Shown here: positions 5,931-42,178 of the stretch, one piece after another | How the letters are laid out: each line of letters begins with the position of its first letter | Numbering within the stretch: position 1 is the stretch's first letter | Source: Flavobacteriales bacterium | GTDB taxonomy: Bacteria > Bacteroidota > Bacteroidia > Flavobacteriales_F > PHOS-HE28 | Direction: 5' to 3' | NCBI GenBank assembly: GCA_035325445.1 | Contig: DAOKZW010000006.1 | Coordinates: 23,776 to 87,775 of the forward strand | Length of the DNA stretch: 64,000 bases | Made by a program: the position numbers and the translations under genes | The notes under the pieces: generated by a model | The model's database searches: none | What the model saw: only the letters and a program-made list of their open reading frames with translations | Told to the model about the DNA's origin: nothing

Positions 5931-7649
5931 ATGATCCGCCGAGTCGGAAGCGCTACTCTCCAGTGCCTCTTGCTCATCGCGCTGACCCTGGGATGTCGGC
6001 CACTCTCCCCGAAGAATGGCCATGGCCGGCCGGGAGGTCTTGGTCCTGTCACGGATCACGCGATGGTTGTGAGCGCCCACCCCATGGCCACGGCCATTGG
6101 GGTTGATGTGTTGCGTGCCGGGGGCAATGCGGTGGACGCGGCGGTTGCGGTGCATTGGGCCTTGGCCGTGACCACCCCATGGGCAGGCAACATCGGCGGG
6201 GGCGGTTTCGCCGTGCTGCGCCTATCCGATGGGCAGGCCATGGCGCTGGATTTCCGGGAGACCGCGCCGGCCCGTTCCACCGGGAACATGTTCCTGGGGC
6301 CCAACGGTGACGCGGAGCACGATAAGAGCACCTATGGCGCCTTGGCCTGCGGGGTACCGGGCAGCGTGGCGGGGCTCTTCGCGCTGCACGACAGCCTGGG
6401 CCGCCTGCCCATGGCACGGCTGATCCAACCTGCCATCGACCTGGCACGCGACGGCTGCAGGCTGACGCCCATGGAGGCGCATGAGCTCAACAGCTGCCTG
6501 CCCATGTTGAGCAAGTACAGTACGCAGCCCAGCGCTTTCACTTCGCGCAAGCAATGGCATGCAGGCGACCTGTTCCTGCAACCCGAGCTGGCCCGCACCT
6601 TGGAGCGCATCCGCGATGAGGGTGCCGCCGGGTTTTATGGGGGCAGCACCGCAGCGGCCATCGTGGCCGAGATGGAACGCGGAGGTGGCCTCATCGATGC
6701 ACAGGACCTGGCCTCCTATCGGCCCGTGTGGCGGCCCGTGGTGAAAGGGCGGTACCGTGATGTGGAAGTGATCGGCATGCCACCGCCTTCCAGTGGCGGC
6801 ATCATGGTCCTACAGATGCTTCAGGGCATGGAATCCTTGAACGTACACGGCTCGGGATGGCAAACGGCGGCCACCGTGCACCGGATGGTGGAGGTGGAGC
6901 GGCGCGCATTCGCTGACCGGTCCGTCCATTATGGCGACCCGGCCTTCAGTTCCGTGCCCATGACAGGCATGCTGGACAGCCTCTACATCCGTGGCCGCAT
7001 GAAGAGCTTCAACCCTCGCCAAGCCACCCCGAGCGCATTGATCGCGGCGGGCATGCCGATAACGGAGCATGAGGAGACCACACATTTTTCCATCGTGGAC
7101 GCGGAAGGCAATGCGGTATCGTGCACCACCACATTGAACGGTGCATACGGCAGCGGTGTCGTGGTCGGGGGCGCGGGCTTCGTCCTCAATAATGAAATGG
7201 ACGATTTCAGCGCGGCACCCGGCGTGCCCAACAGCTATGGCCTGATCGGGGGGCAAGCCAACGCCGTGGCCCCGGGCAAGCGCATGTTGTCCTCCATGTC
7301 ACCTACCATCATCACCCGGGGCGGCCGCTTGTTCATGGTGGTCGGCTCCCCGGGCGGAAGCACCATTCCCACCTCCGTGTTCCAAGTGATCCTGAACGTG
7401 GTTGACCACGGCATGGGGATGCAGCAGGCGGTAAGCGCACCGCGCTTCCACCACCAATGGCTGCCCGACTCGATACAGGTGGAGGTCGGCGCCCTTGCCC
7501 CTGAGGACAGCATGCAGTTGGTCCGGATGGGGCACCGTTTCAAGGCACGGCGGCCCATCGGCCGCGTGGATGCGGTGTTGTGCCTGCCGGACGGGCGCTT
7601 GGAAGGCGGTGCCGACCCTCGGGGCGAGGATGCGGCGGCCGGTTACTGA
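5931..7649 (+). CDS. ggt: gamma-glutamyltranspeptidase
   Basis: GGT family signatures (TTHFSIVDAEGNAVSCTTTLN, GSPGGSTI). Lipoprotein-type signal MIRRVGSATLQCLLLIALTLGC. An alternative upstream start lies at 5895. Confidence 0.85.
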   Translation: MIRRVGSATLQCLLLIALTLGCRPLSPKNGHGRPGGLGPVTDHAMVVSAHPMATAIGVDVLRAGGNAVDAAVAVHWALAVTTPWAGNIGGGGFAVLRLSDGQAMALDFRETAPARSTGNMFLGPNGDAEHDKSTYGALACGVPGSVAGLFALHDSLGRLPMARLIQPAIDLARDGCRLTPMEAHELNSCLPMLSKYSTQPSAFTSRKQWHAGDLFLQPELARTLERIRDEGAAGFYGGSTAAAIVAEMERGGGLIDAQDLASYRPVWRPVVKGRYRDVEVIGMPPPSSGGIMVLQMLQGMESLNVHGSGWQTAATVHRMVEVERRAFADRSVHYGDPAFSSVPMTGMLDSLYIRGRMKSFNPRQATPSALIAAGMPITEHEETTHFSIVDAEGNAVSCTTTLNGAYGSGVVVGGAGFVLNNEMDDFSAAPGVPNSYGLIGGQANAVAPGKRMLSSMSPTIITRGGRLFMVVGSPGGSTIPTSVFQVILNVVDHGMGMQQAVSAPRFHHQWLPDSIQVEVGALAPEDSMQLVRMGHRFKARRPIGRVDAVLCLPDGRLEGGADPRGEDAAAGY

Positions 7650-10600
7650 CGACCTTCCGCCCCGGAAGGCGTGGCCTGCCCACGGCGCTTGCGCCGCCCT
7701 ACGCCCCAAATGCCCATGCCGGCAGCAGCCGCCAGCCCCAGCAAGGCCATCGCCCAGGCCGTGGCCCTGCGCTTTTCCAGCTCCACGGGGCCCACATCGC
7801 CAAGCAACACCAGGCCCGCCCAGTAGTAGGGATGCAGCAGTTCATCGCGGGCTTGGGCCAAGTAGTGGAGCTTGGCTTGGCGCAAAGCCTCATGCTTGGG
7901 CAGGCCCGCAGCCAATCCATCGTGGAAGTCATCGATGATATCGGCGCTCACTTTCTCATCGATGTTCCAGAGCGCCACCACCAGGCTTGGGCAGCCCGCG
8001 TAAGCAAAGCTGGTCCCGAGTGACCGTACCCCTTCCCCGGCATCTTCGCGCCCTCCACCGCTCTCGCACGCGGTGAGCACCGCCAGTTGGGCCCTGATAT
8101 CAAGTTCGTACAGCTCGTAGGCGTGCAGGTAGCCATCCCTTTCCGCATCGCGGCCATCGCCTTCCTTGCCCAGGACGATGCGCGAATACATGGGTCTTTC
8201 CGGGTCCATTTCGGCATGCGTTCCCAAGTACAGCAGGCCGCTGTTGCCGATCATCTTCCTGAAGTTGCCCTCGGAGGCCTCGGCGCCTGTAAAGACCTGC
8301 GCGGCCAGCCGTTTGCCCATCCTCTGCGCCGTACGCACGGCGAACGGTTGCCGCACATAATGCAGAAAGGCCCGGTCCATCGTGGAAGAATCCTGCAGGC
8401 CTTGCAGGTACTGCTGTTTCATCCGGTCATCGAAGCCGGGTGCCATGGCCAACACCCCTTTGGCCCTGGCTTTGGCCAGGTCGGCGAACTGCAGCGATGC
8501 CGTGGCGCTGAGCAGGTAGGCCATGGCATGGCGCTGGATCATCAGCCGCTGCGGGAACTGTTCCACCTCCGGCCCGGAGAGGAGCGCCTCAAAATTCACC
8601 GTGTGCAATTCCTTGTCGGGGATGATGAGCAGCTCATGGGCCGTGAGCAGATTTTCCACCGGCGCCACTATCCTTTGGTACAATTGGTATGCCTGCTCCA
8701 CATAGGCGGCGGTCCTGCGTTGGTTGATGGCCTCGTTCAGGGCCTTCACGTTCCCGGCCAACCCCTGCGGGTCCAACTTGGCCACATGGGTGCCCTGCAG
8801 GCCGACCACCATGACATACAAGGCCTGTTTGGTCCTGGCATACAGCAGCAGTTGCCGCTCTGGGGTCAACAACCTTTCCCGCACTTCCCGCAGGGTCGGT
8901 ATGCGGTCGCCGTACTTCAGGTTGAAATACTTGGGGTGGTTTTTCTCCAGGTATTGGAGCAAGGCCCGGTACTCCTGCTCCCGGACATCCAAGGCCATAT
9001 TGGCCTCGGGGTCGTCCCGATCAACCTGCATGGCCGTTTGCAGTTCGGCCTCACGGGTCAACAGGCTGTCGGGCACGCCCGCGAAGTTCAAGGCGGTGAA
9101 ACCGCCCAGCCGGCCCTTGAGCAATACGGTCCTGTCTGCCTCGGCCAAGTTGAAGAACCGTTGCATGGCTTGCTCGGACGGTGTGCGCATATAGCAATCG
9201 TAGGCCTCATCCAAGGCCAGGTCGAAGAGCTGCTGCTGGGCACCGGTCATTTGTAGTTTCGAGGCTTGATCATCCACGGCGATCCGGCTGCGCGACAAGG
9301 CGCGTATGGCCAGATCGAGGTCCTTGTCCCACTTTCCACTTCCCCTGGCCTGGGGTTCCATGGCCTGCTCCGTCCTCACCTTCCAGTAGATCGCATCCGG
9401 CAGGACGTGCGGGTCCGGGAATGCCACGGGCATTTGCGATGCCTCCACCACCTTGATCCGATCGCCCAGTTCCTCCATGGCAGCCAGCGCATGCCGATGG
9501 GCGCCGACATACAATCCGGCCTTAAAGGCTTGTTCAGCCATCAGCACATCAACCTGGGCCACCTTGTAATTCCGTTCACCGGCGATGTTCATGGCTATGG
9601 CACGGGCATGCCCAAGGTCTTCCATCGCCTCTGCATGCCTCCCTGCCGATGCCCTCATCTCGGCCCTTCCGCGGTATGCTTGCAACAACATGGCATTGGC
9701 CTCCTGCCCCATCTCTTGGCGGGCGGTTTCCATGCTGCACCGGTATAGGGAATCGGCCCTGCCCCTATCGCCTTTGCGGAAGGCGATATCCGCTAGCTTG
9801 GCGCATGCCTGTGCATATCCATCCCCCTTTTTTCCAAAAGCCTGCACCCATGCCGTCAAATAGGATTCCACCAAGGCCTGCGCCTTGTCGGTGTTTCCTT
9901 GTGCCAGTTCCACTTCGGCCATACGCTCGTTCAAGGCCAGCAATTGGATATCGTTCGCCCCCAGCACCTTGCTTCGGTCGTCCCATGCCAGGCCGAGCAA
10001 TTCACGGGCCCGGCCCATGTCGCCCATGGCGAAATACACTGCGGCGAGATTGAGGTAGTTGCGTGAACGGCCGACGAGGACCTCATCCCGTTCGGCCGGA
10101 TCATGGGTGGCCTCCAAGGCACGTCCAAAATCGCGGAGGCTTTCGTGGTAGTAGGCCTTACCCCGTGCCAGGTCCCCGGCATTCTGCCAGATCACGCCCA
10201 AATTGCCTTGTGTGGATGCTCGTCGCAGCAGGAGCACCACGGAGCTATCGGTCCCTATCGCCTCCAGCGCCTTGCGGTAATTGATCTCGGCCTCGCGCAC
10301 CCGGCCCAGCCTCCACAAGGCCACGCCCAAGGCGTTGTACGATTCGGCCCATTGGGCCGACGGAACACTGTCGGCCCGGGCATATTGCTCCAATGCTGCC
10401 CGGGCATACCGCGCGGTCCCGCGGTGATCGCCGAGCATGCTATGGTCAAATGCCAAATACTGGCGTGCCCTTCCCCGCTGCACCGGGGTAATGTCCGGGC
10501 TTCCATCGGCCACGATCATGGCCAAGGAATCCGTGTGGAGGCAGTCTTTGATGCGGCCGAGCTCATAGTACGTCCAGCTGAGGTCGAACAGGGCCTTGAG

Positions 10601-27562: not shown

Positions 27563-27657
27563 GGGCGGTTCGGGCCGCCGATCAACCTTTGGGTGTTGAC
27601 GGGCACGGCTTCCGGGCGGTCGGAGCCGCCATCCGTCATCCCTACCTTTATCCATTG

Positions 27658-29763
27658 ATGCGCACGGGTTGCCCGGCATCAAGCCTTTTGTCGGTACTGC
27701 TGCTGTTCACCGGCTGCAGCACCGGCCAACCACCCGTTAAAGATACCATGCCCACCCACACCAACCGCCTGGCCGGCGAAACCAGTCCCTACCTGCTGCA
27801 GCACGCACACAACCCGGTGGACTGGTATCCGTGGGGGGAGGAGGCCTTCGCCAAGGCCAAGGCGGAGAACAAGCTTGTGCTGGTGAGCATCGGGTACAGC
27901 ACGTGCCACTGGTGCCATGTGATGGAGCGCGAAAGCTTCGAGAACGAGGACGTGGCCCGGCTGATGAACGACCGGTTTGTATGCATCAAGGTGGATCGCG
28001 AGGAGCGGCCGGACGTGGACCAGGTGTACATGACCGCCGTGCAGCTGATGACGGGCCGCGGCGGATGGCCGTTGAACTGCTTCACCCTGCCCGACGGCCG
28101 GCCCGTGTACGGCGGCACCTACTTCCCCACAGAACAATGGACGCAGGTGCTGGAAAGCCTGCACCGCACTTGGAAGGACGAGCCGGGCAAGGTGCTGGAA
28201 TACGCCGGCCGCCTGCATACAGGAGTGACCCGGAGCGACCTGATCACCCTGAACACGGATCCGCCGGACTTCACGCGCAGGCAGGTGGATCAGCTGGCGG
28301 ATGCCTTGGAGCAGCATTTCGACACCGCTTGGGGCGGTCCCGACCGGGCCCCCAAGTTCCCGATGCCCAACAACTACACGTTCCTCCTGCGCTATGCGGC
28401 CACCAGGGGGCGCAAGGCCATCGCCAAGCAGGTGCGCCTCACGCTGGACAAGATGGCCCAGGGCGGCATCTTCGACCAGGTGGGCGGGGGCTTCGCTCGC
28501 TACAGCACCGACATCAGCTGGAAGGTGCCGCATTTCGAGAAGATGCTGTACGACAACGCCCAGCTCATCTCCCTGTACGGCCTTGCCTACCAATACTTCC
28601 ACGACGAGGCCTACCGCGACGTGGTGGAGCGGACCTTGGGCTGGGCCCGCCGCGAGATGCTGTCCCCGGAAGGGCTCTGGTACAGCGGGCTGGATGCCGA
28701 TTCGGAAGGGGAAGAAGGGCTGTTCTACCTGTGGACCGAAAAGCAGCTCGACGAGGCACTGGGGGCTGATGCCGGGTTTGGCAAGGCATACTACAATGTG
28801 GGTGGCGAGGGCTTCTGGGAGGAAGGGCGCAACATCCTTCTGCGCACCATGGACGATGCCGCCTGCGCCCGCAAGCTCGGGCTCAGCCTACAGGAGCTCG
28901 CCACCCGCCGGGCCCGGGTGGATGCCAAGCTGCTCACGGAGCGCGAAAAGCGGGTCAGGCCGGGCTTGGACGACAAGGTGCTCACCTCGTGGAATGCCCT
29001 GATGGTGACCGCCCTGTGCGATGCGCACGATGCCTTGGGCCACGCCGAATACCTGGCCTTGGCCGAACGGACGATGCACACGCTGCTCACCACCTGCCGC
29101 CGGGACGATGGCGGGCTCTGGCACAGCTACACGAAGCGGGTGGCCGCGATCAACGGGTACCTGGAGGACTACAGTTTCACCATCGAGGCACTCCTGTCGT
29201 TGTACCAATGCACCTTCGACGAGTCGTGGCTCGCCGAGGCCCGCAAGTTGGCGGACTATGCGATCGACAACTTCCTGGACCAGGGCAGCGGCATGTTCCT
29301 GTTCACCAGCAAGCTGGACCCGCCCCTGATCGCGCGGAAGATGGAGGTGATGGACAACGTGATCCCCTCCTCCAACTCGAGCATGGCCAAAGGCTTGTTC
29401 GCCTTGGGGCACCTGTATGACGACCGCCGCCTGCTGGCGATCTGCAAGCAACAGCTCCACAACGTGGCGGCATCCATGGCCGACTACGCCGGCGGATACA
29501 CCAATTGGGCCCTGCTGCTGATGGACCATGTGTATCCGTGGTACGAGATCGCCATCACGGGGCCGGAGGCCATGGCCCGCAGGCAGGCCTTCAATGCGCA
29601 CTACATCCCCGGCCGGGTGTTCATGGGCGGCAGCCGGCCCGGCACATTGCCCCTGCTGGAGGACAAGCGTGCCGAAGGCACCACCACCATCTACGTCTGC
29701 GAGAACAAAGTATGCCGCCTGCCCGTGGCCAGCGTGGAGGAAGCCCTGTCACAGATCCGATGA
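27658..29763 (+). CDS. thioredoxin-domain (DUF255/YyaL-like) protein with C-terminal six-hairpin glycosidase-like domain; lipoprotein
   Basis: Signal [11 protein letters not shown]255 core [39 protein letters not shown]. ~700 aa, the size of this family. Confidence 0.85.
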
Positions 29764-29807
29764 TGCCCACCTTGGCCCGAGCTTTGCGCCCTTGCAGCGC
29801 CCACCGC

Positions 29808-30776
29808 ATGAAAACACGACCGGCACGCCTAGCTGCCCTTCCGATCGCCCGTTGGGCCTTGCTCCTGCTGGTGCTGGCCATGGGGACGGCCGGCCATGCC
29901 CAGATATTGCTGGTCGGCCCGGGCACGGAAGATCCCGACATCCTGCACTTCAACACCGAGTTCATCGCCCGGAACGGGGTGCGCAGCGTGAAGGGCCAAG
30001 CCTGGGTGAAGCGGGACAACAAACCCATGTTGCCGCTGGACCGGCATTTCCAGTACCAGTTCGGCGAGGAAGGGCGCCTGGGCTACACCAACACTTCCTT
30101 TGGCAAAGCAGGCTCGGGCATGGATACCGCCTCGGTGATGTACAGCTACGATAACGAGGGACGGCTGCTCCAGGAACTGCACAATGACATCAACGGGTTC
30201 TATGCGCTGCGTTCCGAATACGACCGGGAAGGGCGGGCCACCAGGGTGACCAACGTGCGGTTGGAGAACCTGGGCGGTAACCGGTACCATTTCGTGGAAG
30301 GCCCTTCCACCATCATCAGCGATGAGCGCTATGAGTATCGCAAGCTGAGCGACACCACTTGGATGAAGACCTGGTTGAACGACAGGGGGCGCCCCTACCA
30401 AGAGGAAATGTTCACCTTGGATGGCTTGGGCTACTTGCGCCAAGTGGACCGCCGGAACCTGATCACCCAGCGGCGCGGCAGCATCACCTTCACCTACGAT
30501 GAAAAGGGCCGTTTGGAGGAGCGGAACGAACAGCCCGACCTGGCCGTGCAGCAAAGCACCACTTGGAAGTGGACCTACGACCAGGCGGGCAACCCGTTGA
30601 CGCGCGACCTATTCCGCAATGGCGTCCTGGCCCGGCACAGCGAATACCTGTATGCGGAGGGCACCCTGTTCCTGAAGGCCGTCATCACCAAGAACGACGA
30701 GACCAACGTGATCGACATCGTCCGTTACGAGACGGAACGGCGCAGCGCCTTGGCGGAACCGCTCAAGATGGACTGA
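29808..30776 (+). CDS. secreted protein with four YD (RHS-like) repeats
   Basis: Signal MKTRPARLAALPIARWALLLLVLAMGTAGHAQ. Repeats YSYDNEGRLLQ, EYDREGRATRV, FTYDEKGRLEER, WTYDQAGNPLTRD. An alternative start ATG at 29760 overlaps the upstream stop (ATGA). Confidence 0.5.
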   Translation: MKTRPARLAALPIARWALLLLVLAMGTAGHAQILLVGPGTEDPDILHFNTEFIARNGVRSVKGQAWVKRDNKPMLPLDRHFQYQFGEEGRLGYTNTSFGKAGSGMDTASVMYSYDNEGRLLQELHNDINGFYALRSEYDREGRATRVTNVRLENLGGNRYHFVEGPSTIISDERYEYRKLSDTTWMKTWLNDRGRPYQEEMFTLDGLGYLRQVDRRNLITQRRGSITFTYDEKGRLEERNEQPDLAVQQSTTWKWTYDQAGNPLTRDLFRNGVLARHSEYLYAEGTLFLKAVITKNDETNVIDIVRYETERRSALAEPLKMD

Positions 30777-36502: not shown

Positions 36503-37585
36503 TCAGAACCCCAGGCCCGCCGGCCTTGCTGGGAGGTGTATGCGGTGCAGGTCCCATGCCTCTTCCGGCCGGTACCACAGCTGGGCATCCTTCACGGCAA
36601 GTGGTGATGGTATGTTGTCCAAGTACACGCTGCCCGTGCCCAGTCCTTGCGTGCCACGGGCATTGAGGGTGGCGGCCCACTGCGCGATGGCGTTCAGCCC
36701 TATGCTGCTTTCCAGGGCCGAGGTGATCCACCAGCCGATGTTCCTTTCTTCCGCCAGATCGATCCATTCCCGGGCTGCGGCCCAGCCGCCCACCAAGGAA
36801 GGCTTGATCACGATGTATTGGGGCTTCACATTGTCCAGCAGATCCTGCTTCGCCCCCAACGAATGCAGGCCGATCAGGTCTTCGTCCAAGGCGATCGGCA
36901 CGGGCGTGGCGGCGCAGATCTCGGCCATCACCTCGAACAGGCCCTGCCCCACGGGCTGTTCAATGCTTTCCACCTCCAAGGCCGCCAACCGCTCCAACAC
37001 GGGCATCACGTTCTGGTGGGTGAAGGCCCCGTTGGCATCCACGCGCAGGGTAAGCTCATGGGCGGGAAAGTATTTGCGCACCTCGGCCAACAGCTCCAGC
37101 TCATCCTCGATGCCGATGGCCCCGACCTTCATCTTCACGCAGCGGTTACCGCCGTCGATCTGCGCCTGGATGCGTTCGCGCATCGTGGCCTTGTCGCCCA
37201 TCCAGACCAGGCCGTTGATGGGGATGCCCTTGCGGCCCAAGGTGAAGTCTGACGGGAACAGGATCTTGCTGCCGCTGGCCCGCAGGTCGCGCAGGCACTG
37301 CTCCACCGCAAAGCGCACGCTGGGCACGTGCACCAGATCGTGCCGCAGGCGGTCCTCCCAGTCGGTGGTGTTGGCGCACAGCTCCACCAGCTTGGTGCGC
37401 ACGTCCGCCGGAAACTCCATGCTGTGGCCGGGGAACGGGGCCGCCTCACCGATGCCCTTCACCTCCGGGCGATCCTTGTGCCAAGCCACCAGGTACCAGA
37501 CCGTGCGCTCGTGCAGCACCCCCTTGCTGGTGCCCAGCGGGAAGCGCGGCGTGAAGGTGACCTCTTTCCAAACGGCTTCGATCAT
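36503..37585 (-). CDS. menC: o-succinylbenzoate synthase (enolase superfamily)
   Basis: MR/MLE-type residues KMKVG, RVDANGAF, ESIEQP, IALDED. Start MIEAVWKEV overlaps the menA stop (ATGA 37582-37585). The 167-aa N-terminal ORF extension is rejected. Confidence 0.7.
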   Translation of the reverse strand: MIEAVWKEVTFTPRFPLGTSKGVLHERTVWYLVAWHKDRPEVKGIGEAAPFPGHSMEFPADVRTKLVELCANTTDWEDRLRHDLVHVPSVRFAVEQCLRDLRASGSKILFPSDFTLGRKGIPINGLVWMGDKATMRERIQAQIDGGNRCVKMKVGAIGIEDELELLAEVRKYFPAHELTLRVDANGAFTHQNVMPVLERLAALEVESIEQPVGQGLFEVMAEICAATPVPIALDEDLIGLHSLGAKQDLLDNVKPQYIVIKPSLVGGWAAAREWIDLAEERNIGWWITSALESSIGLNAIAQWAATLNARGTQGLGTGSVYLDNIPSPLAVKDAQLWYRPEEAWDLHRIHLPARPAGLGF

Positions 37586-38475
37586 GGGGCAATAACCAAC
37601 CCCAAAGAAAAGAGCAATGCAACAATGAGGGTGGTCAACGCCAACACCTTGAGCTGCGGGTCCAATGCGCGCGGCTCCTGGTTCTTGAGCACGGTGCGCA
37701 GGTGGCGGTCGAAGAATGGGAAGGCGATGATGAACAAGTATTGCCACCACGAGCGGAAGCTGATGGCGGTGAAGACCACCAAGCAGGCAAAGCCCACGAG
37801 CACCAATGCCGCATGATAGGCCTTGGCCCTTGCGGGGCCCAAGCGGACGGCCACGGTGCGCTTGCCGCTGGCGGCATCGTTCTCCACGTCGCGCATGTTG
37901 TTGAGATTGAGGACGCCGGTGGCCAACAAGCCCATGCCTACTGCGGGAAAGAAGACGATGGGTGTAAGGCGCAGCGCATGCAGGTAATAGGTGCCCCCCA
38001 CGCCCAGCAGGCCGAAAAAGAGCAGCACGCTGATGTCGCCGAGGCCGGCATATCCGTACGGGTTGCTTCCGTATGTGTACCACACCGCCGCAGCGATGGC
38101 CGCCAGCCCGAGCAGCAGAAAGAGCAGCGTGGTGATGGAGAAGCCAAGTGCATGGATGATCAACGCCAAGCCCGACATGAATGATAACAGGCCGCAGACC
38201 CAGATGGCCCTCTTCATGGCGGCCGGCGAGATGGCCCCGCTCTGCACCGCACGCTCCGGTCCTACCCGTTGCTGGTTATCCGTGCCATGCAGGTGATCCC
38301 CCAGATCATTGGCCAGGTTGCTGAGCACCTGCAGCAGCACGGCGGTGAGCAGTGCCAACAGGAACACCGGCCAGCGGAAGGCCCCTTCAAACGCGGCCAC
38401 CCCGCTGCCGGTGATGATGCCGCTCATGGCCAAGGGCAGGGTGCGGGGGCGGAAGGCGTGGAGCCAGGGATTCAT
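37582..38475 (-). CDS. menA: 1,4-dihydroxy-2-naphthoate polyprenyltransferase (UbiA family)
   Basis: UbiA motif NLANDLGDHLHGTD. ~8 TM helices. Start chosen at MNPWLHAF. Confidence 0.75.
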   Translation of the reverse strand: MNPWLHAFRPRTLPLAMSGIITGSGVAAFEGAFRWPVFLLALLTAVLLQVLSNLANDLGDHLHGTDNQQRVGPERAVQSGAISPAAMKRAIWVCGLLSFMSGLALIIHALGFSITTLLFLLLGLAAIAAAVWYTYGSNPYGYAGLGDISVLLFFGLLGVGGTYYLHALRLTPIVFFPAVGMGLLATGVLNLNNMRDVENDAASGKRTVAVRLGPARAKAYHAALVLVGFACLVVFTAISFRSWWQYLFIIAFPFFDRHLRTVLKNQEPRALDPQLKVLALTTLIVALLFSLGLVIAP

Positions 38476-38585
38476 GGCGGGGCGCAAGGTATTGGTCCCC
38501 GCCGGGTTCGCGATGCGTGACCCGGCGGGGATAGGAGTTGCATTCCCTTGCCACCTTCGGCCCGGAACATTACGTAACTTCACGC

Positions 38586-38600
38586 GTTCAATACGTGAAC
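38586..38600. promoter_or_regulatory. palindromic operator-like motif GTTCAA-TAC-GTGAAC (plus upstream TTCAC half-site) immediately 5' of the antitoxin start
   Basis: Seen in sequence 4 nt before the ATG at 38604. Typical position for a TA autoregulatory operator. Confidence 0.4.
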
Positions 38601-38603
38601 CCG

Positions 38604-38822
38604 ATGACCGTGAAGCTCACCTTGTCCGTCCCGCCGAAGTTCAAAAAGACGGCGGCCATGCTCAGTCGCCGACGCAAGAAGAGCATTTCCGCCCTGGTGG
38701 TGGAGTTGATCGAGCGCGAGGCGGAAAAGGACAAGGACCGATATGCCGAGATCCGGGGTATATGGAAGGACCGCGACATCACCGCTGAAGAAATCCGCGA
38801 GCGCGCATGGAAACGGTCCTGA
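38604..38822 (+). CDS. type II antitoxin (VapB-like) of VapBC pair
   Basis: 73-aa basic/charged protein MTVKLTLSVPPKFKK... Overlaps the PIN toxin start by 16 nt. Confidence 0.5.
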   Translation: MTVKLTLSVPPKFKKTAAMLSRRRKKSISALVVELIEREAEKDKDRYAEIRGIWKDRDITAEEIRERAWKRS

Positions 38823-39184
38823 TCGATACCAGCATCCTGGTCGGCCTGGCCCGGAATGAAGCAGCCGCCGACAGCGCCCTGGCCCGCGTGGGCGATGCCC
38901 TCCAAGTGATCTGCGACGTGGTGCTCGCCGAAATGCTGGACGGCGCGCGGAACGAGGCGGAGCACGACCGCTTCTTCGCATATTTCAACAAGAACTTCGA
39001 GATCCTTCCACTAACGATGGAAGTGTCCCTGCGCTTCCGGGAGATCCTCCGCTCAACCGGCAAGGAGCGGGGCAAGCACCTCGCCGACTACCTGATCGCC
39101 GCCACGGCGATAGCGCATGACGTGCCGTTGCTCACCTTGAACACCAAGCATTTCAAGGGCATCAAGGGCTTGCAATTGGCTTGA
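38807..39184 (+). CDS. vapC: PIN-domain toxin VapC
   Basis: PIN acidic residues: VLIDTSIL (D6), ...EMLDG..., ...LIAATAIAHDVPLLTLN (D). 125 aa. Confidence 0.8.
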   Translation: METVLIDTSILVGLARNEAAADSALARVGDALQVICDVVLAEMLDGARNEAEHDRFFAYFNKNFEILPLTMEVSLRFREILRSTGKERGKHLADYLIAATAIAHDVPLLTLNTKHFKGIKGLQLA

Positions 39185-39240
39185 GAAGCCCATACGTGCA
39201 TCATTCGAAAAGGTGGTAACAGAAGGGAATCCCACTACTC

Positions 39241-39393
39241 TTGGTCCAACTCAACCACGAAGTGGTCGGGGAACGGGTCGGCGTGCTGAGCAAGTTCCCG
39301 TTCCGGGTGGTATACGAGGTTGACGGTTACGAGGTGATCATTTACCGCGTGGTACACATGAGGCGCAGGCCACACGAACGGTTCAGGCCGTAA
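39241..39393 (+). pseudogene. RelE/ParE-family toxin, C-terminal half only (truncated remnant)
   Basis: Own translation of + strand: ...GERVGVLSKFPFRVVYEVDGYEVIIYRVVHMRRRPHERFRP*. The RelE/ParE C-terminal signature is present but there is no N-terminal half or ATG. The overlapping - strand ORF 39235-39525 is rejected. Confidence 0.4.
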
Positions 39394-39737
39394 GGAAGGC
39401 TTCCTCGAGCGCAACCAGCCCTCTGCTACCCACAACCACTGGCCGCCGATGGCAGCGTACGGGGCTTGGAAGCGTTCAGGCCTGTACCTATCGGACCGTG
39501 TCGTGCATGGCCCCGCACTTTTCACTTCAACTGCTTCGTGCTATATTTATCCTATCAACGATCCACCCCATCACAAAGGCACTCCCGCCCATGCCTATTG
39601 GCGGCTAGACGCAATGCGCATTTTGCACTTCAGATTCAGTATGTCGCTGATCGTTAGGACGGTACAGCAAAACAGACACCCCGTTCAGTTGCGTCTATTA
39701 ACGAGTTAGCGGGCATTATAATGACAGACAGCCGGCA

Positions 39738-40328
39738 ATGAATATTTGGATAATAATTTTGGCAGTCCTAGTCTATGCGTTCTACGATCTCCCTTTGGAA
39801 ATTACGGATACTTTTTTGGCATATTTAATTCCCTTCATCATATCAATAGTTTGTTTAGCTACATTGATTTTAAACTTTCGGACTATTTCTTTATTAACAT
39901 ATAAACATAAGGTAATTGCAAGGTTTTTTAACTGGGTAGCTACAATTGTTTTTAGCGCTATGACTTTGTGGAACTTTCCAATCCCTGTTGACAGAGGTTA
40001 TCGTAACAAAAACTGGACTGACATTGATATGCTTATTAACCCTAACAATCTGACAGAACAATACGTTCGACAACATATAGAATTTGGTGGTTCCGATATG
40101 CCGGGACAAAATGTCAAGGTTCAAAAAATAAACTCATGGCTACGTTGGCGACATCACGCTGACACAAAAAAATTAAATGGACAATGGTTATTCATTGATA
40201 ATTCAAATAATGGATATAACAGCCCACCATTTAACTTAGACGAAACCAAAATTGACTATGACAGGGATAAACAAAAAGCAAAGCTTGTTACAATTGTAAA
40301 TGGACGAGTGGAACATAACGCCCGCTAA
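39738..40328 (+). CDS. hypothetical membrane protein encoded in an AT-rich (~35% GC) foreign segment
   Basis: 196 aa with three N-terminal TM helices and an Asn/Lys-rich soluble C-terminal domain. Strong compositional contrast with the ~65% GC surroundings. TATAAT hexamer at 39716-39721. Confidence 0.55.
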   Translation: MNIWIIILAVLVYAFYDLPLEITDTFLAYLIPFIISIVCLATLILNFRTISLLTYKHKVIARFFNWVATIVFSAMTLWNFPIPVDRGYRNKNWTDIDMLINPNNLTEQYVRQHIEFGGSDMPGQNVKVQKINSWLRWRHHADTKKLNGQWLFIDNSNNGYNSPPFNLDETKIDYDRDKQKAKLVTIVNGRVEHNAR

Positions 40329-40504
40329 CACACGTTTGGCGCAATGGGGGCCGACCCGGTTCACTGAAAGCTTGTGCTTCTGTTGTAAATTCGTGTTGGC
40401 TGACGATTTAGTTTTCCAAAATCCCCACTGCCCCGAGCGTGGGAACGTTAGTAGTGAACACGTTGGCCCGATACACATCGGGCCGATAGGTATCGGACGC
40501 TCCC

Positions 40505-42178
40505 CTATCCCAATTCCTTGAAGTAATTCCGCAGCACCTGGGGCGAAACCTCCGCATCCGTCTTCACCACCAGCACCGCCGGTTTTTCGTGGGGCTTGTA
40601 TAGCTCCTGCAGCGCCGCTTGCAGCGTGGCGCCATCATGGGCTTCGTAGCACGCCAGGCCGTAGCTCTTCACCAAGGCGGGGATGTCGCGGCCATGCGGT
40701 GACTCGAACCAGGGCAGCAATTCGGGGTCCTTGTCGGGCCCTTCGATGTAGCGGAAGATGTTGCCGCCGCCGTTGTCGATCACGATCACGCGCAGGTCGG
40801 GCGAGAGATACTTGTTCCAGAAGGCATTGCTGTCGTAGCAGAAGGCCACGTCGCCGGTGATGAGGGTGGTGGGCCTGCCGGTGGCATGGGCCGCGCCCAC
40901 GGCGGTGCTGGTGCAACCGTCTATGCCGCTGGTGCCGCGGTTGCTGAAGAAGCGCAGGCCGCGTGTGCGATCAAGAAGCTGCACGTAGCGCGCCGCCGTG
41001 CTGTTGGCCAGGTGTACGTCGCTGCCTTCGGGGATCCTTTCCAGCAAAGCCTGGAACACGGTGAGGTCGCAGTAGGGCGCTTTCTTCAACAGGCCGTCGT
41101 GTGCCTCGCGCATGCGTTGGGCCACCATGCGCCACGCCTCGGCGTAGAGGCTTTCGTTGGGCTTCACCTGCCCTTCCATCTGCGCCAGGAATATGTGCGG
41201 CGCCACGGCGATGTCGTGCGTGAGGCTCTGGAAGGTGTCGTAGTGCCGCCGCTCCTCGTCGATGTGCCAATGCTGGGCAGGCTTCCATTTGCGCAGCAGG
41301 CCCTTGATGCGCTTGCTGACAATGGCCCCGCCGAAGGTGATCAGGATGTCCGGCTTCAGGTCCTTCTCGTTGCCATCGTTCACGCCTTCCAAGGTGCGGT
41401 CGATGCAGGTGATGAAGGCCTCATCATCCAAGTTGGACGTGGCCTCGGTGAGTACCGTACACTGCGGGAGTTTGGCCCATTGCTTCAGTTGGGCCTTGAA
41501 GGCATCGCCCCAGTAGCCCTGGCCCACCAGCACCATCACCTTCAGGCTTTGGGAGAACTGTTGGCCCCGCCATCCCTTGTCGGGCAGCATGAAGGAAGCC
41601 ACGGGCATGGGGGCGATCAGGCGCAGGTCCTGGGTGTCATCCGTGCGGCCGTAGAGCGGTTCGGCGAAGGGTACATTCACCTGCACGGGGCCCGGCACGG
41701 GCAGCAGGGTGGCATCGATGGCGGCATTGATCAAGCGGCCGGCATGCCACCTCGCCAGATCGTCCGTGGCGCGCGGCAACTGCACGCTCCGCTTCAGGTG
41801 CGGTGCCAGGACATGCTGTTGACGGATGGTCTGCCCCTCGCCCTGATCGATCCACTCCTCGGGCCTGTCGGCGCTGATCACCAGCAGGGGTATGCGCTGG
41901 TAGAAGGCCTCGGCCACGGCCGGGCCGTAGTTGAGCACGGCGCTGCCGCTGGTGCAGATGAGGGCCACGGGCCGGTGCAGTTGCTGGGCCATGCCCAAGG
42001 CGAAGAAGGCCGCGCTGCGCTCATCGATCACCTGCAAGCAGGTGATGCCGGCTTGTTGTTGGAAGGCGATCACCAGCGGCGCGTTGCGCGAGCCGGGGCT
42101 GATGACCGCGTGGGTAACGCCCTTTTCGGCACAGAGCCGGGCCAGTGCAGCGGCGGTGAAGTGGTCCGTTGTCGGCAT
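40505..42178 (-). CDS. menD: 2-succinyl-5-enolpyruvyl-6-hydroxy-3-cyclohexene-1-carboxylate synthase
   Basis: TPP-enzyme pattern (VISPGSRNAPL ... GTSGIDG). 557 aa. In the men cluster. Confidence 0.85.
   Translation of the reverse strand: MPTTDHFTAAALARLCAEKGVTHAVISPGSRNAPLVIAFQQQAGITCLQVIDERSAAFFALGMAQQLHRPVALICTSGSAVLNYGPAVAEAFYQRIPLLVISADRPEEWIDQGEGQTIRQQHVLAPHLKRSVQLPRATDDLARWHAGRLINAAIDATLLPVPGPVQVNVPFAEPLYGRTDDTQDLRLIAPMPVASFMLPDKGWRGQQFSQSLKVMVLVGQGYWGDAFKAQLKQWAKLPQCTVLTEATSNLDDEAFITCIDRTLEGVNDGNEKDLKPDILITFGGAIVSKRIKGLLRKWKPAQHWHIDEERRHYDTFQSLTHDIAVAPHIFLAQMEGQVKPNESLYAEAWRMVAQRMREAHDGLLKKAPYCDLTVFQALLERIPEGSDVHLANSTAARYVQLLDRTRGLRFFSNRGTSGIDGCTSTAVGAAHATGRPTTLITGDVAFCYDSNAFWNKYLSPDLRVIVIDNGGGNIFRYIEGPDKDPELLPWFESPHGRDIPALVKSYGLACYEAHDGATLQAALQELYKPHEKPAVLVVKTDAEVSPQVLRNYFKELG

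Follow-up and report, generated by a model that had tools for sequence, protein, structure and literature searches.

A 196-aa open reading frame (ORF; 39738–40328, + strand, ATG start) differs sharply in composition from the rest of the 64-kb stretch of DNA analyzed here (the window), which raises the question of where this gene came from and whether it works together with the toxin-antitoxin genes beside it. The GC content of the ORF was 34.5% (0.345) as compared with 0.619 for the window, and its GC content at third codon positions (GC3) was 0.32, against 0.81–0.86 for vapB, vapC, menD and menA, in keeping with the initial annotation of a foreign, AT-rich gene in a host where GC3 is about 0.85. 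When GC was calculated in 500-nt intervals, the only two low values, 0.408 (39501–40000) and 0.424 (40001–40500), both overlapped the ORF and none of the remaining intervals fell below 0.556, so that the description of the ORF as the sole strongly AT-rich region also held.

The ORF is a real gene, with about 30 homologues (E ≤ 1e-30), each of about 195 aa, that share 37 invariant columns at 47–80% identity. The dN/dS values within the family ranged from 0.07 to 0.20, values that indicate strong purifying selection, and a chance ORF is excluded. It is also rare, since an exhaustive profile search of 1.84 billion protein representatives returned only 15 matches, none of them annotated or fused. 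The ORF was intact and identical in four samples, and an insert of about 2.0 kb that contains it was 100% identical in three other samples, whereas menD differed.

The insert between menA and menD

This insert (38477–40504) lies between the start of menA and the stop of menD, as delimited by blastn against a relative (L021, MenD 85% identical) in which the site is empty and menD and menA are 6 nt apart. In this comparison the alignment of menA ended at 38476 and that of menD began at 40540. The host flanks are menA (37582–38475, − strand; UbiA-family prenyltransferase, Pfam UbiA 2.7e-30), the start of which was placed at ATG 38475 by homology, and menD (40505–42178, − strand; Pfam TPP_enzyme_N, _M_2 and _C), homologues of which are named SEPHCHC synthase in Flavobacteriales metagenome-assembled genomes. 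The insert carries its genes on the + strand, and the men genes lie on the − strand. The men genes separated in this way belong to the vitamin-K2 operon.

The neighborhood first reported for the ORF, with VapBC and a RelE remnant, was recovered, the VapB and ParE matches being below cut-off. Specifically, vapC (38807–39184, + strand) encodes a PIN-domain toxin (Pfam PIN 9.3e-16; NCBIfam TA_toxin_VapC 5e-12, below its cut-off), and the vapB-like antitoxin gene (38604–38822, + strand), called mechanically from TTG 38538 with ATG 38604 as the likely start, overlaps the vapC start and narrowly missed the cut-off in its matches to Pfam VAPB_antitox (2.3e-5) and DUF6364 (5.1e-5). The ParE/RelE-family toxin gene is a 3′ remnant of 50 aa (39241–39393, + strand; ParE_toxin E = 0.0036, below cut-off) that covers profile positions 63–88 of 89, the C-terminal end only, and that from 39284 shares homology with a longer copy of the gene in a sister locus (L019). 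The host-like GC3 of vapB (0.81) and vapC (0.84) suggests that this pair was acquired separately from the ORF. The flanks of vapBC form an inverted repeat of 75–82% identity without an AAC box and are weakly attC-like.

The attC site and the boundaries of the cassette

The recombination site of an integron cassette, attC, is an imperfect palindrome of about 57–141 nt located directly 3′ of an ORF that carries two boxes, R″ (RYYYAAC) and R′ (GTTRRRY), in the palindrome. A 131-nt site of this kind (40323–40453, + strand) begins within the end of the ORF, its R″ box CGCTAAC holding the TAA stop codon and its R′ box GTTAGTA lying at 40447–40453. The AAC and GTT cores of these boxes fit the consensus, and their degenerate positions fit only partly. 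An attC starting in the stop codon, the decisive feature of the locus, had been overlooked in the initial annotation.

A covariance model (R2), trained on eight attC sites of other cassettes in six other loci and run with filters off, gave a single match across the two strands of the 64 kb, a full-length one at 40323–40453 (+ strand) with 39.2 bits and E = 1.8e-6, as compared with 5 bits on the minus strand. In a sequence-only MAFFT alignment of the eight training sites, the R and L helices were 73.7% paired, compared with 61% after shuffling and 30–41% after sliding, and none of 500 shuffles equaled the covariation score of the alignment. Two L-stem positions were mismatched, in seven and in all eight of the sites. 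The spacers measured 1–5 nt on the R″ side (1–2 nt in about half) and 5–7 nt on the R′ side, and the related sites had conserved AAC…GTTA boxes and a uniform length of 131–133 nt. In an architecture scan 40323–40453 was the only site in the window to score at least 16, five shuffles of the window giving 0, 0, 0, 0 and 1 sites at a score of at least 18. Folding of 40323–40453 as DNA paired its two ends, with an unremarkable z-score of −1.2 for the site alone. A first scan that required complementarity of R″ and R′ inside one site gave no sites, which is attributed to an unsuitable criterion, as in an array each R′ box derives from two cassettes. An earlier covariance model (R1), for which loop-trimmed pseudo-sites had been used, was discarded: in native DNA it did not recover the sites on which it was trained, and its pairing statistics, being circular, were not used. 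Rfam and tRNA scans were empty.

The cassette delimited by this attC (39706–40448, + strand, 743 bp) begins with a 32-nt A-rich leader, followed by the ORF and then by the attC. Homology with the cassettes of three related loci (L005, L007 and L008) begins at G/TTAGCGGGC and ends at CG/TTA, where the slash marks the crossover point, and the flanks are unrelated. Aligned with these three, the sequence upstream of G39705 showed identities of 0.22–0.30, the leader 0.73–0.87 and the ORF 0.78–0.81, with a fall to 0.26–0.40 past the downstream GTTA. The same step was seen at 39705 against other copies of the cassette, from 0.22–0.35 before to 0.64–0.87 after this position. In the four contexts outside this locus that were compared, homology to the cassette began and ended at G/TT crossover points. 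An integron cassette starts with bases that can pair with the R″ box of its own attC, the site being reconstituted in the circular form. Accordingly, the 5′ end of the cassette, GTTAGCGGGCATTAT (39705–39719), is complementary to ATAACGCCCGCTAAC (40315–40329) at 14 of 15 nt (93%), and the rule was also true of six other cassettes (four in L005, one in L008 and one in L019).

On the upstream side, comparative evidence places a second recombination site at 39598–39711 (+ strand), a hairpin with arms TAGACGCAA (39606–39614) and TTGCGTCTA (39689–39697), then TTAACGA and, at 39705–39711, the R′ box GTTAGCG, with the crossover between G39705 and T39706. In the comparison with L019 the arms and the box were kept and the loop had diverged, the two loci parting right after GTTA. 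The R2 model did not recognize 39598–39711, suggesting that this site belongs to another type or has degenerated.

No recombinase domain was found in the ten size-plausible ORFs of the window that were scanned, nor was an integrase found in the 10-kb flanks of related loci (L001, L003, L004, L011 and L027). A complete integron would have IntI and attI beside the array; here the insert is bounded by menA and menD. The sigma70-like TATAAT noted initially is literally present at 39716–39721, within the cassette's conserved 5′ end. Its reading as a promoter was not supported, as this hexamer has no −35 partner and sigma-70 promoter-like sites were at chance level in the region (three found versus 2.0 ± 1.4 expected). 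The Bacteroidetes −7 motif TAnnTTTG had no match upstream of the ORF, and the scan detected no terminator-like sites with a T-run.

Related loci and comparison with known cassette arrays

Three states were seen at the men junction: the empty site of L021, the slot occupied by the present cassette, and the slot occupied by another cassette in the sister lineage L019 (MenD 93% identical). In the latter, a different AT-rich cassette lies between the same two sites, so that the slot beside the same ParE/RelE gene encodes an unrelated 412-aa secreted BNR protein. This series shows cassette capture and exchange in Flavobacteriales, part of a phylum that is almost devoid of integrons according to surveys of complete genomes; of two IntegronFinder 2 surveys, for Bacteroidetes the earlier gave no complete integrons or CALINs (clusters of attC sites lacking an integrase) and the later one complete integron, in Salinibacter (PMC9024848).

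Elsewhere, homologues of the ORF adjoined R2-type attC sites in at least ten contexts (L001, L003, L005/6, L007, L008, L011, L024, L025, L026 and L027), and in L004, L009 and L016 the gene had no intact attC. The cassette that follows the 196-aa cassette differed between L005 and L007. The array of L027 had 13 attC sites in 15 kb, all on one strand, the other strand carrying a group II intron; that of L005 included a HigBA toxin-antitoxin cassette. The initial annotation had proposed a search for homologues in defense islands or prophages. In L003 the homologue follows a type I restriction-modification operon, and the phage, plasmid and IMG/VR collections searched contained no relatives.

On this evidence the ORF is most probably the single gene of an integron-type cassette, carried in a small integrase-less array that splits menD from menA. 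In the mechanism we propose, a 2-kb array comprising the cassette, vapBC and the decayed ParE/RelE gene would have been inserted into the 6-nt menD–menA junction of a high-GC Flavobacteriales genome, and the cassette would have been a recent import from the cassette pool of low-GC Bacteroidota, which would explain the 35% GC of the ORF. Recombination would be catalyzed by an integron integrase encoded elsewhere, and the ORF may be transcribed by read-through from upstream. A vague observation of a foreign gene is thereby replaced by a concrete and testable genetic mechanism.

The cassette resembles integron cassettes of unknown function (gcu) in having one promoterless ORF followed by an imperfect palindrome with AAC/GTT boxes, a stop codon in the first box, G/TT boundaries and 5′ bases complementary to its own R″, as well as in the shuffled order between arrays and the interspersed toxin-antitoxin cassettes. 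It differs from them in that no IntI was found here, in the deviation of the degenerate box positions from RYYYAAC/GTTRRRY and in its Bacteroidota hosts. One further cassette without an assigned function would, by itself, be no surprise to integron specialists. With no integrase nearby, the array is CALIN-like, being small and chromosomal, although it sits inside the junction of a housekeeping operon; a CALIN requires two or more attC sites within 4 kb (two or more being the IntegronFinder default), and here one site is supported by the model and the second (39598–39711) by comparison, through its hairpin, its GTTA box and the exchange of cassettes there. Similarities with the Vibrio superintegron (VCR) concern mainly the related arrays, which have homogeneous attC sites of about 132 nt with conserved internal motifs, many small same-strand ORFs without assigned function (as in L027, with its high density of sites) and toxin-antitoxin cassettes such as HigBA in L005. 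That system belongs to another phylum, however, and here no integrase was observed and the window holds a 2-kb array fragment.

Possible roles of the protein

An AlphaFold2 model of the protein (pLDDT 84), obtained following the suggestion of a structure prediction, showed helices at residues 3–15, 25–50 and 55–78 followed by a beta-rich C-terminal domain of about 115 aa. Kyte-Doolittle hydropathy was clearly above 1.6 for the first two helices only, the third being weaker in this sequence; the membrane anchor described initially was thus reproduced by three modeled helices, two of them with clear hydropathy. The C-terminal domain was, as claimed, rich in Asn (13%) and Lys (8%). Loop 1 carries three acidic and no basic residues and loop 2 four basic and no acidic residues, which fits an N-in/C-out orientation, so that the protein is predicted to have its N-terminus inside, three transmembrane helices and a C-terminal beta domain that is probably periplasmic. 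The absence of a recognizable motif was borne out in Pfam, NCBIfam, PHROGs and PADLOC, which gave nothing for the ORF or its remote relatives, a match to a housekeeping family included. The fold searches gave no match, with none at E ≤ 0.001 among the viral structures of BFVD, and a PDB sequence profile search returned only noise from transmembrane segments. A conserved SGS…K motif led us to consider a type I signal peptidase (S26), a candidate that was judged by the S26 fold and the Ser/Lys boxes B–E and rejected.

The initial annotation took the toxin-antitoxin genes as a functional clue, with the membrane protein as an abortive-infection or defense effector that works with VapBC and RelE or shares a defense island with them. 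The adjacency itself, the ParE or HigBA pairs near homologues in L004 and L005, the restriction-modification operon of L003, the membrane anchor and the foreign composition are in line with such a role. Yet no conserved co-occurrence of the family with toxin-antitoxin genes was found, as the neighbors vary in every locus examined; in L019 an unrelated cassette follows the same ParE/RelE gene, and the host-like GC3 of vapBC is discordant with the 0.32 of the ORF. The gene is moreover a self-contained cassette with its own attC, PADLOC and PHROG gave no match, and toxin-antitoxin cassettes are generic in, and typical of, chromosomal cassette arrays (PMC13108822). A functional link of the ORF to these genes is not supported and the partnership is very unlikely; their adjacency is better explained by common residence in one small array, of which the toxin-antitoxin genes would be members and not partners of the ORF. 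A reading that would remove the cassette altogether, in which the palindromes terminate transcription or represent REP/MITE-like repeats and the gene is an ordinary horizontally acquired orphan, appears the least credible. The failure to find an integrase in the window or flanks scanned and the fold z-score of only −1.2 are compatible with it, and the hairpins could act otherwise, though no terminator-like site with a T-run was detected. Against it stand the conserved AAC…GTTA boxes and uniform length of the sites, the complementarity of the first bases of each cassette to its own R″ box, the breaks in homology exactly at G/TT, the permuted cassette order with another cassette in the sister-lineage slot, and the orientation of 13 out of 13 L027 sites on one strand with the group II intron opposite.

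Within the cassette explanation, a defense or immunity role at the cell envelope is plausible. We tentatively consider it possible, though short of probable, that the protein acts alone as a protective factor of the envelope, either excluding phage genome entry or neutralizing a toxin of the periplasm or membrane. For the former, an inner-membrane protein encoded by a single cassette-borne gene would block genome injection through its periplasmic domain. The single-gene cassette, its strong purifying selection and diverse hosts and the predicted membrane anchor with an outward-facing domain point in this direction, and there is precedent in phage-resistance cassettes, of which about one third of those found experimentally have transmembrane helices and one, Deva, blocks genome injection (10.1101/2024.07.02.601719). 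By architecture the protein is like these phage-resistance cassettes (BRiCs), small and cassette-borne with transmembrane helices and no recognizable domain, unlike them in that theirs come from mobile integrons of Proteobacteria (10.1101/2024.07.02.601719) and that the present gene is not known to have a phage phenotype. As cassette-borne membrane proteins recently gave new mechanisms of phage resistance, it is reasonable to consider this family for functional screening. However, PADLOC, PHROG and fold searches (including BFVD) revealed no likeness in sequence or fold to known defense or exclusion proteins, and most cassettes of unknown function are not defense genes. Exclusion genes are often found in phage genomes, and those searched held no relatives. 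As the specific role, phage exclusion is rather improbable. For the latter, the protein would be an orphan factor conferring immunity to an interbacterial toxin, its gene being stored in an array of integron-like type such as the rAID-1 arrays of Bacteroidales, the description of which the present arrays recall in phylum, in small same-strand genes of skewed, here AT-rich, composition and in repetitive, integron-like intergenic sequences (10.1101/471110). Lipoproteins encoded by several neighboring cassettes, an Imm33-like gene near the homologue in L004, an RHS/YD fragment in L027 and RHS-repeat ORFs in the window (27589–30776) lend it some color. In contrast, rAID-1 arrays are defined by a XerD-family recombinase and homology to T6SS immunity genes (10.1101/471110), and here no XerD-type recombinase was found in the window ORFs or related-locus flanks scanned, no Pfam family was matched, those of immunity proteins included, and a cognate toxin gene stood beside no family member. 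Conservation of 37 residues without change at 47–80% identity is unusual for immunity proteins, as these typically diversify, and we hold this role to be unlikely. The broadest form of the envelope reading, a new single-protein protection factor found essentially only in integron cassettes among Bacteroidota, together with dispersed attC slots in Flavobacteriales chromosomes that actively exchange cassettes by means of an integrase supplied in trans, is doubtful; if true, such slots, with no integrase close by and even inside housekeeping operons, would represent a mode of integron biology undocumented for the phylum. Irrespective of its role, the family is a rare, tightly conserved and cassette-restricted group of membrane proteins with no known relatives.

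Finally, the ORF may be a decaying or non-functional passenger that is unexpressed in this host, lacking a promoter and mismatched in codon usage, for which there is a limited but real chance. The GC3 of 0.32 in a host at 0.85, the lack of a supported promoter and the already truncated ParE/RelE gene next to it agree with silence, while the intact ORF, identical in four samples, and the strong purifying selection on the family speak against decay. Silent carriage is compatible with the cassette explanation, and weak expression is believed to be the rule for array cassettes.

The AT-rich ORF and its protein family

The 196-aa ORF at 39738–40328 (+) proposed in the initial annotation is a genuine gene, with 30 homologues found in a search of 5.8 billion proteins, 37 invariant alignment columns (including LAYLIPF, KNWTD, GS, RW and W-L-x-I) and dN/dS values of 0.07–0.20 (dS 0.6–1.6) in pairwise comparisons of the window gene with its copies in the related loci L005, L008 and L016. 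Nearly all of the homologues were 185–205 aa long (the two shorter ones being 181 and 119 aa), with 47–99% identity; those with a named source came from Bacteroidota MAGs and none of the 30 contained a Pfam domain. When 1.84 billion cluster representatives were searched exhaustively with a profile, just 15 proteins reached E≤0.001, so the family is rare. Remote relatives (147–181 aa) retained E21, W93, G118 and S119 and almost always P19, D95, K127, R136, G148 and W150. The earlier statement that no motif is recognizable agreed with the lack of similarity of the protein to Pfam, NCBIfam, PHROG and PADLOC families, to PDB sequences and folds and to viral folds. The search for homologues in prophages that had also been suggested gave no relatives in phage, plasmid and IMG/VR collections. 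This tiny, highly conserved and cassette-restricted family is of modest interest.

The ORF has a GC content of 0.345 vs 0.619 for the window, and the two 500-nt windows covering it (0.41–0.42) stood apart from all others of the 64 kb (at least 0.556), as expected of the sole strongly AT-rich coding region. Its GC3 was 0.32 vs 0.81–0.86 in vapB, vapC, menD and menA; the presumed foreign origin was confirmed, with a cassette as the mechanism. The sigma70-like promoter fared less well: a literal TATAAT is present at 39716–39721, within the conserved cassette end, but it lacks a −35 partner, leaving a promoter unsupported, and promoter-like sites around the ORF were no more numerous than expected by chance.

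Cassette ends and the attC site

In L005, the homologue (79% identical) lies in a row of small same-strand ORFs headed by a HigBA pair, each ORF being followed by an imperfect palindrome of 130–190 nt that starts with ...TAAC at or just past the stop codon and ends with ...AAC(C)GTTA just 5' of the next ORF. Past G|TT, each of these cassettes starts with bases complementary to the first box of its own palindrome, as in the pairs GTTGTGC/GCACAAC, GTTATGTGC/GCACATAAC, GTTAGCGGGC/GCCCGCTAAC and GTTATAGGC/GCCTATAAC. Such complementarity between start and own box is expected for a circular integron cassette opened at the attC G|TT (PMC4889954, PMC8618304). In the window, GTTAGCGGGCATTAT (39705–39719) is 93% complementary to ATAACGCCCGCTAAC (40315–40329, stop codon included). 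As a further test of the boundaries, the window was aligned with three loci in which the surroundings of the homologous cassette differ (L005, L007 and L008). Identity was 0.22–0.30 in the 60 nt 5' of G39705, 0.73–0.87 in the 33-nt leader, 0.78–0.81 in the ORF, 0.48–0.68 in the attC arms and 0.26–0.40 past the downstream GTTA.

A covariance model of attC sites (R2) was built from eight native sites of about 131 nt belonging to other cassettes, from L003, L005, L008, L011, L024 and L026. In a sequence-only alignment of these sites the R and L helices were 73.7% paired (61% when shuffled, 30–41% when slid), none of 500 shuffles equalled the covariation score and two stem positions were mismatched in nearly all eight sites. 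Searched over both strands of the window with filters off, R2 gave a single, full-length match at 40323–40453 (+) with 39.2 bits (E=1.8e-6) vs 5 bits on the reverse strand. This was also the sole site scoring at least 16 in a cruder architecture scan, in which five shuffles of the window gave 0, 0, 0, 0 and 1 sites at a score of at least 18. Its R boxes meet the textbook consensus in the AAC/GTT cores only. The R'' box (within 40315–40329) encodes the last residues of the protein and its stop codon, so that C-terminus and recombination site constrain each other and the C-termini are clade-specific, with AAC GCC CGC TAA C (N-A-R-stop) in the window clade and AAC AAC CCA TAA C (N-N-P-stop) in the other clade (L003, L009, L011). 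The attC sites of L005, L006, L007, L008, L024, L026 and L027 form a homogeneous family, nearly all of 131–133 nt, and share internal motifs (for example ACATTTGTG and TTTTGTGGT) that are conserved; this Bacteroidota family recalls the VCR repeats of Vibrio superintegrons.

Cassette exchange within the menaquinone operon

The ORF belongs to a self-contained cassette with its own attC, exchanged at a defined slot. MenD homologues placed the host among high-GC Flavobacteriales MAGs. In the relatives L021/L022 (MenD 85% identical), menF-menD-menA-menC-menE are contiguous and the menD stop and menA start are 6 nt apart, identifying 38477–40504 of the window as an insertion; R2 had no match in L021. 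The closer relative L019 (MenD 93% identical) shares window 39284–39708, comprising a ParE/RelE gene and a hairpin up to GTTA, and matches the window again from 40458 onward. The slot at window 39706–40448 is occupied there by another AT-rich cassette (7723–9085 of that locus) encoding a BNR-repeat protein of 412 aa that has a type IX secretion domain (Por_Secre_tail); the cassette starts with GTTACAACC, has its own R'' box GGTTGTAAC with a perfect R'/R'' match and carries a shorter attC (95 nt). Comparison of L021, the window and L019 thus gives three states of the locus, empty, cassette A and cassette B, a natural series of modest interest. The stretch 39598–39711 is a putative upstream recombination site on the grounds that its hairpin is kept in L019 while the loop diverges, a GTTA box is present and two different cassettes are joined to it; it was not recognized by R2.

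The array splits the menaquinone operon, with about 2 kb of opposite-strand genes between menD (40505–42178, −) and menA (37582–38475, −), a position of some modest interest. With menD separated from them, menA-menC-menE, downstream of the insert, must have gained a new promoter. Three other metagenome samples (L013–L015) had an insert 100% identical to that of the window (zero differences over 38434–40548), while the adjacent menD (40549–40725 compared) showed 10–16 differences within a few hundred bases, which suggests a recent sweep or a transfer of the insert between strains and, together with the unameliorated GC3, points to recent acquisition of the cassette. The left edge of the insert carries, between the start of menA and vapB, a perfect hairpin with a stem of 12 bp and a loop of 12 nt (38496–38531; TCCCCGCCGGGT ... 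ACCCGGCGGGGA), and two small palindromes adjoin the menD stop. A motif of about 21 nt (TCAGGCCTGTACCTATCGGAC/TCGGGCCGATAGGTATCGGAC) occurs upstream of the slot (39476–39498), just past the cassette (40468–40498) and also in L019; possible identities are a REP-like element and the remnant of an earlier cassette end.

The adjoining toxin-antitoxin genes were as annotated: upstream of the ORF lie a VapB-like ORF, the first of three such elements, a VapC with a PIN domain (E=9.3e-16) and a 50-aa ORF matching ParE_toxin at its C-terminal end only. Their value as a functional clue did not hold, since the adjacency reflects co-residence in one array and the L019 swap shows that it has no functional basis. 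Cassette arrays typically include toxin-antitoxin cassettes (PMC13108822). The vapBC genes have a host-like composition and are flanked by an inverted repeat of 75–82% only. Neither the window nor the flanks of any related locus yielded an integron integrase; the array is CALIN-like (an attC cluster without integrase) and we infer the recombinase.

The family in other loci and a possible role

R2-type attC sites directly adjoin family members in L003, L005/6, L007, L008, L024, L025 and L026 and in the complete Bacteroidales chromosome L001 (71.7 bits). A 236-aa cassette comes before the 196-aa cassette in L005 and after it in L007. The Flavobacterium MAG L011 has three such sites; an array of four to five cassettes (6000–10600) lies 3' of a 2-oxoacid dehydrogenase E1 gene, no integrase was found within 10 kb of it and the family member appears frame-disrupted (ORF of 139 aa vs a tblastn match over 172 residues). 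In L027 (1–20588 of a 141-kb contig), 13 attC sites lie within 15 kb, all on the same strand, and there are about 25 small same-strand ORFs, among them one for a DUF3859 protein and an RHS/YD-shell fragment. At one end, the opposite strand encodes the reverse transcriptase of a group II intron (RVT_1 and GIIM), an arrangement known for attC-associated introns. Neighbouring cassettes were mostly without annotation, as is usual for cassettes. No intact attC was found at the family members of L004, L009 and L016, the last two retaining box remnants. The L016 homologue (71% identical; locus 1–2812) stands alone, flanked by prfA and a UbiA-family gene, with GTTAGCG kept at the 5' end and a decayed 3' attC; it resembles a cassette that has become fixed at a secondary site and is heading to domestication.

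The element is an integron gene cassette without assigned function in an integrase-less array, a kind already known. Its host phylum adds modest interest, as surveys of complete genomes show almost no integrons in Bacteroidetes (PMC9024848). AlphaFold2 with the family alignment (pLDDT 84) predicted helices at 3–15, 25–50 and 55–78 followed by a beta-rich C-terminal domain; the three N-terminal transmembrane helices annotated earlier were thus recovered as helices, the third being weaker than the first two in hydropathy. Loop 1 (DLPLEITD) has three acidic and no basic residues and loop 2 four basic and no acidic ones, a distribution consistent with an N-in, C-out topology that would place the beta domain of about 115 aa in the periplasm. 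Under the proposed mechanism, the cassette would have been captured by an integrase and its ORF expressed by read-through, yielding a protein whose domain would face the periplasm. As a single gene conserved across hosts, predicted to be membrane-anchored and outward-facing, it might tentatively be given a protective role at the envelope. Exclusion of phage entry, which has a precedent in the third of phage-resistance cassettes that have transmembrane helices and in the injection-blocking Deva (10.1101/2024.07.02.601719), would be a rather unlikely form of such protection. Immunity to a toxin acting in the periplasm, for which the rAID-1 immunity arrays of Bacteroidales are an integron-like precedent (10.1101/471110), would be quite improbable. 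Some 9 kb away from the array, two overlapping long ORFs of 724 and 423 aa (27589–30776), the second with RHS-repeat matches, may form a polymorphic-toxin locus.
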